From the NCBI GenBank assembly GCA_034780895.1, contig JAUZTB010000070.1:5639353-5699837 (forward strand): a DNA stretch of 60,485 nt. The letters run 5' to 3'. Source of the stretch: Rhynchobatus australiae (taxonomy: Eukaryota). The first letter of the stretch is position 1. Every line of letters starts with the position of its first letter. This document shows, piece by piece, positions 16,950 through 30,826 of this stretch. A model generated the notes under the pieces. The model worked only from the letters and a program-made list of their open reading frames with translations, was not told where the DNA came from and did no database searches. Both the position numbers and the translations under genes were made by a program.

Positions 16950-17047
16950 CTCATACTCCTGTGAAAACTTCAAGTTGTCATTTGCTTTCAGATGCTCTGT
17001 GTGCTCGGTGAGCTCTGTAATGGGAATCGGTGGGTGACTCATCATGC
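16950..17047 (-). CDS. PTPRS: Exon, 98 nt: (G)[32 protein letters not shown]
   Basis: tcttttcacag acceptor, GAG|gtagag donor; HPPIP and SQEYE motifs; phase 1 to 0. Confidence 0.96.
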
Positions 17048-26300: not shown

Positions 26301-26794
26301 GCATTGGGCCAAAATTCAGCAACCCCCACCTCATCCCCGCTCCCACCAGAGAGGAGGAGTTTCTGTGTCCATCCCCTCCCAAGGAAATTGTGAATTAATG
26401 GTGGAAAGCCATACTTTGGACAACTTTGGTAGAGATGTAGCAAGGATATCATGGACCAATGGCCTCCTTCTGTGCTGTAACCATCCCAGGAAATCCACAG
26501 TGTGTGGAAGGTTGACTCCTGAAAGCTTAACTTCCATTCTAGCCTCCCCTCCCTCTCACCCTCACCCCCAGCCCATCCACTGCTCCCACATCCTTAAGGC
26601 CCACTAGACCACCAGATGAAACTGATGAAGCCACAAATCTGCAGGCAACCCTGGACTTAAAGGATTGACGTTCGAAACATACACCTAAAGAACATGCAAA
26701 AGTGAGAGGAGCTAAAAGCTTAGCCAATGAGCAGCCAGGAGCTCGAGAGAGAAACACAAGTTAAAAACTACATCCAGGTGGATAAGAAACACAG

Positions 26795-26870
26795 ATTATA
26801 TGTACATATATAGATATATATTACAATATATATCTATATATGCTATATATAGATATATATATATATATTA
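26795..26870. repeat. (TA)n-rich microsatellite
   Basis: Directly visible. Confidence 0.9.
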
Positions 26871-26933
26871 AAAACAAAATGAAATCAAATAAGCTAACAA
26901 AACAATAGGCATAAAATGCAAGTGGGAACTAAC

Positions 26934-26975
26934 TTGCAAATTCGGGTTCACTGAGGGGGCTGCTGACAACAGATT
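26934..26975 (-). CDS. PTPRS: 42-nt mini-exon (meD-like): (E)SVVSSPLSEPEFA(S)
   Basis: Acceptor tgtttcttttcacag, donor A|gttagt, phase 1 to 1; resembles the recalled PTPRS insert DSGLRSPLREPGFHFES at the same position. Confidence 0.78.
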
Positions 26976-27156
26976 CTGTGAAAAGAAACATCAGCACGTG
27001 AACACACTTAAATCTACAGGCTGGCAGAACGCAACTCAAGGGGGAGATAACAAAAGAACAAAACGGGAACTCAAACAAACAAACAAATGCATGAGTAAAC
27101 AGTCAGTCTCCGATCTGGCCCTCTCAAAGAACTCGACGGTTTGTTCTGTTTCTTAC

Positions 27157-27201
27157 CTCGTATTTTTTTTCTTTCCTTTCTCTCTTCGGGGCCCGGTCTG
27201 T
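27157..27201 (-). CDS. Candidate 45-nt micro-exon: (D)RPGPEERKERKKIR
   Basis: Strong donor GAG|gtaaga, weaker acceptor ttgtgtttaag, phase 1 to 1, no stop, purine-rich body. Confidence 0.45.
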
Positions 27202-27268
27202 CTTAAACACAACTGTAGTAATTGTGTCCGTGTGAGACTGCCTGAAAATTCGGGAACCCCCCACTTAC

Positions 27269-27301
27269 GAGGGCAGGTCCCTGGAATGACTACGGTTGAT
27301 C
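27269..27301 (-). CDS. Candidate 33-nt micro-exon: (G)STVVIPGTCP
   Basis: Acceptor ctagtttcccctcccag, consensus donor C|gtaagt, phase 1 to 1, no stop. Confidence 0.65.
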
Positions 27302-30300
27302 CTGGGAGGGGAAACTAGGGTTCCGCCGAGACACAGAGGCCAAGGATGGATGAAGGCAAAGTGGAGTCCACAACAAGACTCCCAAGGCTTTTTCTACCAA
27401 CCAGACCCTCAGCTCGAATTCCGAGGTGTGTTGGATCTGATTATGAAGGTATCATCGCACATTGTCCTATCTCCAACAGCATCACCTAGTTAAAGAGGCA
27501 CATTCAGCATTCTTCAATATTTTATTAACTAATTTAATGAAAAAAACATGAAATTATCTTTCTCTCGGGTTGCGGGCAGCTGAGTCCTGGAGATTAACTG
27601 TCTGGGAGGTTTGGTAACCTGTCCCAACCCTGTCCCAGCCCCACTGATTTTGCTGTCAACTCTGCTGAAGCTAATATTCCAGGTGGCACTCTGGGCTCTG
27701 CTTCCGGTTCCTTGCTGTGCCACGAGCTGACCATGTCGTAGACCATTGACGCTGCCCCTTCCTCATGGTGTCTTGTCATATGCCAATGAGCAGCAGCAGC
27801 TCCAGCTCCTCCCTCACGCCGTAGCCCAGGGACACTGCAGTCACATGCAGCCTTTCTGTGGGACCCACTTGAATCATCTGACTGAGCACAGAGTGTGGAC
27901 TGACTGGGTCAGCCTGTGTTGGCAGCCATAATCCTGTCACTGAAGAGTGCTACATTGCTGCATAGATGGGGCAATGACCTCAGAGAATCTACCACTTGNN
28001 NNNNNNNNNNNNNNNNNNNNNNNNNNNNNNNNNNNNNNNNNNNNNNNNNNNNNNNNNNNNNNNNNNNNNNNNNNNNNNNNNNNNNNNNNNNNNNNNNNAC
28101 CACTTGTCTGCTGCCACACATTTAAGTACAGCCCTGGGCTGTGCCATACAAACACAGCTGGCTGTCCCCTGTCATTAGCTGCACTCCAGGTGACCCAGGT
28201 GTAAGAGGAGATGGGCTTTGCCCTCAAGTTGAATCCTTTCTCAAAGTCTTGTAAATGGAGGTCACCGAGTCAATAGCTTTGCTTACGTGGTCGATAATAC
28301 CACTTCTGGTTAGTTTGGATTTGTTCACCTGCACTGGATTAATGATTAGTTGTGCCTATTTTAAAAGACAACTTTTAAAAGATGGTTGGACAGGTGCAAG
28401 GACAGGCAAGGCTCAGAGGAATATCGGCCAAACGTAGACAAATGGGACGAGCTTGATGGGCACCTCGGTCAGCATGGACACATTGGGCTGAAGGGCCTGT
28501 TTCTGCGCTGTATGATTCTATTTAAATCCAGCTAACGTTCTGTCATCAGACCTGGAGGGAATGAATGATCCTTGATGCCCCGCATATGCTGCCAGGAAAC
28601 CCACTGACAAACAAACCCTGCCGATTGCTTCTCCCCCCAGTCGCACATTTTACCGCAATGTGTTAACACAAAGTGCTACCATGTACTGCCAAACCTGGAT
28701 GGTGAGACACCTTTCTCGAGGAATTCAAAAATGCACCAAATGATTGGTTCAAATTAATGTCAAGTGGTTTCCAGCTTTATACCCATAACATGGACATCCA
28801 CAACCAATGCATCCTAGATCCAGCAGGCACTTCCTTCAAATGCATGATACTTCTCAAATTGGATTTGCATAATAACTTTGCAATATTGTGGAACCTTTAT
28901 TCTATGATGAGATCTACTGTAACACCTGCATCTTTATGGGGACGAATGGGCGTGCCTTGTTTTATGCTACATTTTTCTCTGTAGTCATCTTTAGTGGCCA
29001 ACAGATGAGCTAGTAACCTGCTTCTGCCCCTTTGGACCCGCTGTTTTCCAGCAGACCAGTGGGGGTGTGCGGGCTGGGTCCCTCTCTCTTCGTTCACAGC
29101 ACAGTTAGGTTGATGATTCNNNNNNNNNNNNNNNNNNNNNNNNNNNNNNNNNNNNNNNNNNNNNNNNNNNNNNNNNNNNNNNNNNNNNNNNNNNNNNNNN
29201 NNNNNNNNNNNNNNNNNNNNNNNNNNNNNNNNNNNNNNNNNNNNNNNNNNNNNNNNNNNNNNNNNNNNNNNNNNNNNNNNNNNNNNNAGATTTAACATTT
29301 GGTTAGGGATCATATTTCTTAGGCACTGATAAAAACACCCCAGCTAATCATGTGTCACATTAAAAACCTACACATTTTAATATTTGATTAAAGGTTAGAT
29401 TTAAATGTGCTTCAATTTATAATTATAACATCTGTTGAAGGATATGACAGAGACGTTCACACTGGTTGAATTTACAGCTGCGAATTTTCCATCTTCCCAC
29501 TAGCATGCCTTGAATGACAGGTCTGGTACACAAAACAGGTTGCCACTCCCTCTCTTTGGGAAGTGGCTAGGAGATTGGCAAGTGTGGTACAAGCCGGCAC
29601 AACTTCTGTCAGTCCCAGAAATACCCTGCCTGTGTAAAAGCAGGAACATTATAACTCTTGCAGTTAAGGTTTCCAACATGGAATTGGCATTGCCAGAGAC
29701 TGCTGGCAGTGTTGTTGCTCTTCCTTCTCTTCCTCAACCTTTCCTCCCCTTCCCTCATGCCTTCTTGCTCCTGCCCTCTCACTCCTGCTCCTTTCCTCCT
29801 TCCCCCTTCCCATTGTCTCTCCCCTCTTCCCGCTACACTCCCACTGCCTCTCCCTGCAGCACCAGCAGTAGTGCTTTGACACTTGTGGCTGCTGAGGCTT
29901 TTTGTGGGCAGACATTGTGCTGACTTGCTGGGATAGATTCCTCCCAATGGTTCCTGGAAGCTCCTGCCCAGAGGATTACTGCGTGGTCGGTCTGAATTTA
30001 TCTCAGTGATCAACATCCAGAGTCATTCTGGGGCCACTCAGATTTGATCCTGACAGTACAGGTGGACAAAAGACTAATCTGTTCCAAAAAGGATTGCTCC
30101 CATTTCTAACCAGTGGTTTTCATGGACTCCTGGTGTCCGATTAAAATGAGATGTGCTGCGATTTCATTCCGTGACGTCTGACAATCCTTTCAAGGCACCA
30201 ATGAAGGGACTGCATCTCAATTTAGACTATAGGCTGCTTCAATCAGAATTTGGGCTTGCAAGTTGATGTTGAGACTGGTGGCACTTCCATGGAGTTTAAA

Positions 30301-30713: not shown

Positions 30714-30826
30714 CTGGCGTCTGAAAGTTGATGCGTCTCATTTCGACCGGGTCCATGGGGTGATGGGATGGCACTTCTGCGTTGTTGAGGAGACACTTGG
30801 TTCTGGGATCACTTTCTTTGCGTTTT
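30714..30826 (-). CDS. PTPRS: Juxtamembrane exon, 113 nt: (R)[37 protein letters not shown]
   Basis: aatgacag acceptor, G|gtaaag donor; [10 protein letters not shown] and [13 protein letters not shown] are PTPRS-type; phase 2 to 1. Confidence 0.96.

Follow-up and report, generated by a model that had tools for sequence, protein, structure and literature searches.

A meD-site cassette exon of PTPRS in Rhynchobatus australiae, probably accompanied by two unused decoy splice-site pairs

Upstream of the first phosphatase domain (D1) of a LAR-family gene of Rhynchobatus australiae, a single intron holds three short segments bounded by AG and GT. The segments lie on the minus strand at positions 27301-27269, 27201-27157 and 26975-26934 of the window, which is the whole 60,485-nucleotide stretch of DNA that was analysed (assembly GCA_034780895.1, contig JAUZTB010000070.1, 5,639,353 to 5,699,837). 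As the original prediction stated, they are multiples of three in length (33, 45 and 42 nucleotides), in phase 1 and stop-free, with the peptides that it listed. It read them as a possible combinatorial cassette of three exons at the meD site, perhaps an ancestral set that was later partitioned among paralogs. The question raised by the locus is how many of the three segments are exons. It is highly probable that the 42-nucleotide segment is the single meD-site cassette exon of PTPRS, included or skipped, and that the 33- and 45-nucleotide segments are unused decoy splice-site pairs in the intron upstream of it.

The host gene and its juxtamembrane intron

The features of the locus, all on the minus strand, are as follows.

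30714..30826: upstream constitutive PTPRS exon, juxtamembrane, ending in FQTP, with a phase 1 donor (junction verified)
27269..27301: 33-nucleotide AG...GT segment, likely a pseudo-exon, possibly a young or rare exon (splice scores, relatives, proteins)
27157..27201: 45-nucleotide AG...GT segment, probably purine-rich intron sequence whose donor is a strong decoy (splice scores, substitutions)
26976..27135: conserved intron flank of the 42-nucleotide exon, with UGC at -21, a branch-point-like CTGAT (A at -16) and then a pyrimidine tract (relative L, motifs)
26934..26975: 42-nucleotide PTPRS meD cassette exon, which contributes 14 residues ahead of the D1 phosphatase domain (protein inserts, spliced contig, synonymous change)
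26693..26698: TGCATG, an RBFOX-type motif 236 nucleotides downstream of the 42-nucleotide exon
16950..17047: downstream constitutive exon, MMSHPPIP..., start of the D1 region (junction verified; joined to the 42-nucleotide exon in run X24)

The host intron is 13,666 nucleotides long, in phase 1, and separates exons 30826-30714 and 17047-16950. The product of the upstream exon shows 100% identity with the Mobula, Amblyraja, Leucoraja and Narcine proteins and 95–97% with those of sharks and chimaera. Because database names of these proteins mix 'S-like' and 'delta-like', a tree was built from 17 chosen intracellular regions. It places the orthologue group of the window with frog and teleost PTPRS with support of 100/99, apart from PTPRD and PTPRF. 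The genome contains three LAR-family loci, and the two besides that of the window match PTPRD and PTPRF. The top solved-structure match of an isoform from a stingray relative is human PTPRS D1-D2. The gene in the window is the PTPRS orthologue, as established by the tree and the three paralogous loci, and the proposed meD position in a LAR-family gene is borne out by the tree and the location.

The 42-nucleotide exon and its counterparts in PTPRD and PTPRF

In LAR-family phosphatases (PTPRS, PTPRD and PTPRF), meD is an optional short insert of up to 16 residues near D1, and its role is undescribed according to two reviews (PMC8711739, PMC12598525). Of 95 named PTPRS proteins of chondrichthyans, 42, which belong to 12 genera of sharks and rays, contain exactly the 14-residue insert that the 42-nucleotide segment encodes. 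The remaining 53 comprise 44 that skip the insert, five chimaera proteins with a 14-residue orthologue, three chimaera UniProt models with a different 12-residue stretch, and one without the next exon. Database isoforms are predicted models; among those of elasmobranchs, 42 contain the exon and 37 skip it. The exon is a known mini-exon, which database models from related sharks and rays already contain. PTPRS proteins of frog and teleosts carry related inserts of 14–16 residues. The 12-residue chimaera inserts and a 14-residue insert of Hucho, all from UniProt models, start like a read-through of the upstream donor and are probably artefacts of prediction.

Splicing of the exon is indicated by contig 4 (2,948 nucleotides) of run X24 from relative L, which spans 26933-26978 and continues directly into the downstream exon, with 28 of 30 displayed letters matching by eye. 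Run X24 is classed as 'probably DNA' and its tissue is not on record; an exon–exon joint in its contig implies spliced RNA or a processed copy. The depth is 177 for the spliced contig and 3.6 for the unspliced one, with one figure per contig, which is no measure of the inclusion level. The predicted isoforms together with this contig point to the existence of both included and skipped forms in relatives. In relatives I, J and K, the exon contains one listed change, which is synonymous. This change and the identity of the peptide across the 12 genera indicate that the exon is under coding constraint with a conserved frame.

The 14 inserted residues correspond to residues 916-929 of P0010, and solved D1-D2 constructs match from 929-939. 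The insert is positioned about 40 residues past the membrane span and ends where the solved constructs begin, so that the exon falls after the juxtamembrane exon and ahead of the point where D1 starts. Position, size, and the frog and teleost orthologues identify the 42-nucleotide segment as the meD of PTPRS; its proposed identity as a PTPRS insert is also upheld by the protein inserts and the spliced contig. The size is within the range stated for LAR-family meD, and the position and the related sequence are those of the frog and teleost PTPRS inserts; however, the insert has 14 residues, whereas the Xenopus and teleost isoforms compared have 16. By contrast to the invariance of the insert in elasmobranchs, meD was undetected in mouse Ptprs in one study (PMC10883964). 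Another review, in the portion available, places MeA-MeD extracellularly and gives no meD sequence (PMC6078854); the extracellular placement does not fit the position of the 42-nucleotide exon.

The equivalent introns of PTPRD (locus L002, on C118) and PTPRF (L004/L005, on C76) contain one well-scoring exon each, of 42 and 33 nucleotides. These exons match inserts in 57 of 120 listed PTPRD proteins and 24 of 120 listed PTPRF proteins, with 11 and 44 of the listed proteins, respectively, left unscored because the downstream exon was not found by pattern. The exons of the three paralogs share nine terminal bases, CAA followed by GTTAGT, a donor hexamer that occurs in one of 33 verified donors. 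The PTPRS–PTPRD and PTPRD–PTPRF exon pairs outscore 2000 of 2000 shuffles, and a direct alignment of the PTPRS and PTPRF exons is not significant (p 0.12). The three exons may descend from one exon that predates the gene duplications. The data are explained by one ancestral exon that all three paralogs retained and not by a partitioned set, because every paralog holds its own exon with the common donor; the proposed partitioning is largely refuted.

In rat LAR, juxtamembrane cassette exons have been described whose splicing is favoured in neuromuscular tissue (PMC2120354). The 33-nucleotide exon at the meD site of PTPRF in this genome is in agreement with these cassettes; however, that exon belongs to the paralog, and the 33-nucleotide segment of the window matches it in length alone. 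The likeness of this segment to the PTPRF insert, noted in the original prediction, is no better than that of shuffled sequences (p 0.31 for nucleotides, 0.12 for peptides), and the donors differ.

The 33- and 45-nucleotide segments

Segments of 24–60 nucleotides that are bounded by AG and GT and compatible with the frame occur 23.65 times per kilobase over 174,918 verified intron bases, or about 7.5 times per 340 nucleotides. Because they are so common, the combination of AG and GT, frame and absence of stops is at chance level. The matrix used to score splice sites came from a small sample, 33 verified junctions of this genome. The acceptor of the 45-nucleotide segment scores 0.6, below all 33 verified acceptors (minimum 3.7), and its donor is strong (10.9). 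The segment lacks an acceptor of functional strength. The acceptor of the 33-nucleotide segment scores 9.3, exceeding 17 of the 33 real acceptors and so of about median strength, and its donor scores 4.4, exceeding one of the 33 real donors, with GTAAGT as the intronic hexamer. Its summed score of 13.7 compares with 13.8 for the real 42-nucleotide exon. No branch-point-like motif is present within 66 nucleotides upstream of the 33-nucleotide segment. The segments are separated by 67 nucleotides (33 to 45) and 181 nucleotides (45 to 42), and splicing in both the 33- and 45-nucleotide segments would require a 67-nucleotide intron without a branch-point-like motif.

Peptide 5-mers of the 33- and 45-nucleotide segments occur in none of 182 proteins, a set in which the largest cluster, of 169 proteins, is represented by 15. 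Contigs of relatives contain no exon joint for either segment; such contigs drop rare forms, and in the comparison of relatives, changes near the ends of aligned pieces go unlisted. Contigs of runs X24 and X10 pass through the 45-nucleotide segment unspliced. Those of X10 are three short pieces identical to the window, and since the RNA status of this run is a guess, they are no sign of expression. No RNA run is listed for 26500-27700, run X14 gave no aligned sequence, and run X15 did not extend over the three segments. A repeat origin of the region of the two segments was not found, with one match in the genome in a search that skips common repeats.

The conservation of splice sites and frame in relatives that would be expected of exons holds for the 42-nucleotide exon, fails for the 33-nucleotide segment, and is divided for the 45-nucleotide segment, in which frame and AG and GT are kept and the substitutions are nonsynonymous. 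All five listed substitutions in the 45-nucleotide segment change the amino acid, each falling on codon position 1 or 2. Relatives I, K and L share a 6-nucleotide gap that leaves the reading frame intact, and in these three the AG and GT carry no listed change. The segment is conserved less than the adjacent intron and bears no mark of coding constraint. In relative L, the 160 nucleotides adjoining the 42-nucleotide exon contain three listed substitutions and one indel, and the next 71 nucleotides, which include the 45-nucleotide segment, contain 10 substitutions and the 6-nucleotide gap. The segment thus sits where the conservation of the flank decays.

The 33-nucleotide segment is unaligned at 80% in relatives I, J, K and L, although the flanking intron is aligned. 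Contigs of J and K bridge its place at nearly equal length, a 48-nucleotide piece of intron just upstream is aligned, and pieces of 30–48 nucleotides are alignable elsewhere. In the close relative C, no change is listed in the segment or its splice sites, and the 67 nucleotides downstream contain five. However, the divergence of C is 15 differences in 549 nucleotides (2.7%), at which zero changes in 33 nucleotides are expected about four times in 10. Relative C is uninformative in this respect, and the segment does not appear to be conserved above the flanking intron.

The quality of the two decoys can be compared with that of intron sequence elsewhere. A decoy as good as the 33-nucleotide segment is present in eight of 423 control windows, one as good as the 45-nucleotide segment in 22, and both together in none, with thresholds chosen post hoc, after the candidates had been seen, and with the matrix of 33 sites. 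Because the pairing is uncommon by score, a young or rare 33-nucleotide exon keeps a small probability. If, besides the 42-nucleotide meD exon, the 33-nucleotide segment were an exon of recent origin, confined to one lineage or rarely included, it would add 11 residues, including a cysteine, at the meD site. Its acceptor strength, its GTAAGT donor hexamer, the scarcity of equally good decoys and the unchanged sequence in C speak for this reading; the failure to align in I, J, K and L, the absence of its peptide from the proteins, the weak donor score without a branch-point-like motif, and the expectation for zero changes in C speak against it and leave it distinctly unlikely. In a broader form, the ray lineage would have recently gained one (33 nucleotides) or two extra frame-preserving exons beside an ancient meD, at an early stage of exonization. 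Such a gain, which is unlikely, would provide new PTPRS linker variants just before the D1 wedge, one with a cysteine and one polybasic.

A conserved combinatorial cassette of three exons, split from an ancestral set among PTPRF, PTPRD and PTPRS, is extremely improbable. The segments are frame-compatible, such a pair is seen in no control window, the indel in the 45-nucleotide segment keeps the frame, and there is a weak alignment of the 33-nucleotide segment with the PTPRD exon (p 0.02, in one of 10 nucleotide comparisons). However, every paralog holds a single exon of its own bearing the donor of the 42-nucleotide exon, catshark, white shark and chimaera have one insert only in their longest annotated isoforms, the upstream flank has no homology to the paralog introns (p 0.26 and 0.88), and neither the 33- nor the 45-nucleotide segment has exon-like conservation in relatives. 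A multi-exon cassette would have extended the splice code of the LAR family to the cytoplasmic side, which the evidence does not support.

It is also conceivable, if quite improbable, that the 33- or 45-nucleotide sites were never exons and act as regulatory decoys, competing for U1 or U2AF and setting the inclusion of the 42-nucleotide exon. No change is listed for the strong donor at 27156 in relatives I, K, L and C, and it borders the conserved flank, 181 nucleotides upstream of the real acceptor. However, conservation within the aligned flank is lowest in its surroundings, and a decoy-type counterpart is absent from the vicinity of the paralog exons. Unused decoys beside a single meD exon are the preferred interpretation.

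Intron flanks, splicing control and the inserted peptide

The conserved flank at 26976..27135 may have a regulatory role. A weak donor combined with a conserved flank would fit a regulated exon, and inclusion of the single meD exon is likely to be biased towards neural cells, with help from the weak donor, from UGC near the acceptor, as in SRRM3/4-dependent exons, and possibly from the RBFOX motif downstream. TGCATG motifs downstream of an exon can mediate control of its inclusion by RBFOX. The motif predicted about 240 nucleotides downstream of the exon is present; it has no listed change in relatives I, J, K and C, which is at chance level for six bases and uninformative. TGCATG is absent within 400 nucleotides downstream of the meD-site exons in PTPRD and PTPRF of this genome. 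The block of intron downstream of the exon that holds the motif (26599-26795) is about 95% conserved, bar indels, in I, J and K, and is likely a splicing control region.

The 42-nucleotide exon resembles SRRM3/4-dependent neural microexons, as described in a preprint (bioRxiv 10.1101/2024.09.17.613571), in that it preserves the frame and has conserved flanks and UGC near the acceptor. However, at 42 nucleotides it exceeds the strict size limit of microexons, its UGC runs into the 5' end of the branch-point-like motif instead of lying between the motif and AG, and the exons of PTPRD and PTPRF have no UGC at the acceptor. The local CpG richness that was noted originally is real, with an observed/expected ratio of 0.71 (14 CpG) at the cluster, where 55 windows across the same intron have a median of 0.27.

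The D1 wedge mediates inhibition by dimerization, according to a review (PMC8711739). The 14 serine, proline and acidic residues of the insert likely lengthen the flexible linker before the wedge region, which could tune the spacing of D1 or the inhibition by dimerization. Alternatively, the insert may add a proline-directed phosphorylation site, which is proposed because its Ser/Thr-x-Pro core has persisted from chimaera through to frog. meD emerges as a single exon kept in three LAR-family paralogs with a common nine-base donor, and its PTPRS peptide is invariant in the elasmobranch genera. Because the peptide is constrained across genera, meD likely has a role, and the conserved Ser-x-Pro core is the place to mutate.

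A literature search that covered few subscription papers returned no paper on the evolution of meD or on extra meD-site exons in cartilaginous fish.

Three further features of the gene lie upstream on the minus strand. A 12-nucleotide micro-exon (32580-32569), right after the transmembrane exon, encodes four residues around KPD and is included in 37 of 96 proteins, skipped in 55 and unscored in four. A tandem acceptor (CAG then AAG) at about 35232-35227, before the transmembrane exon, results in a difference of one lysine, which is missing from 14 of 95 proteins. At about 39725-39715, two extra residues follow immediately after the penta-arginine processing site, relative to three aligned relatives and the listed forms of the motif.
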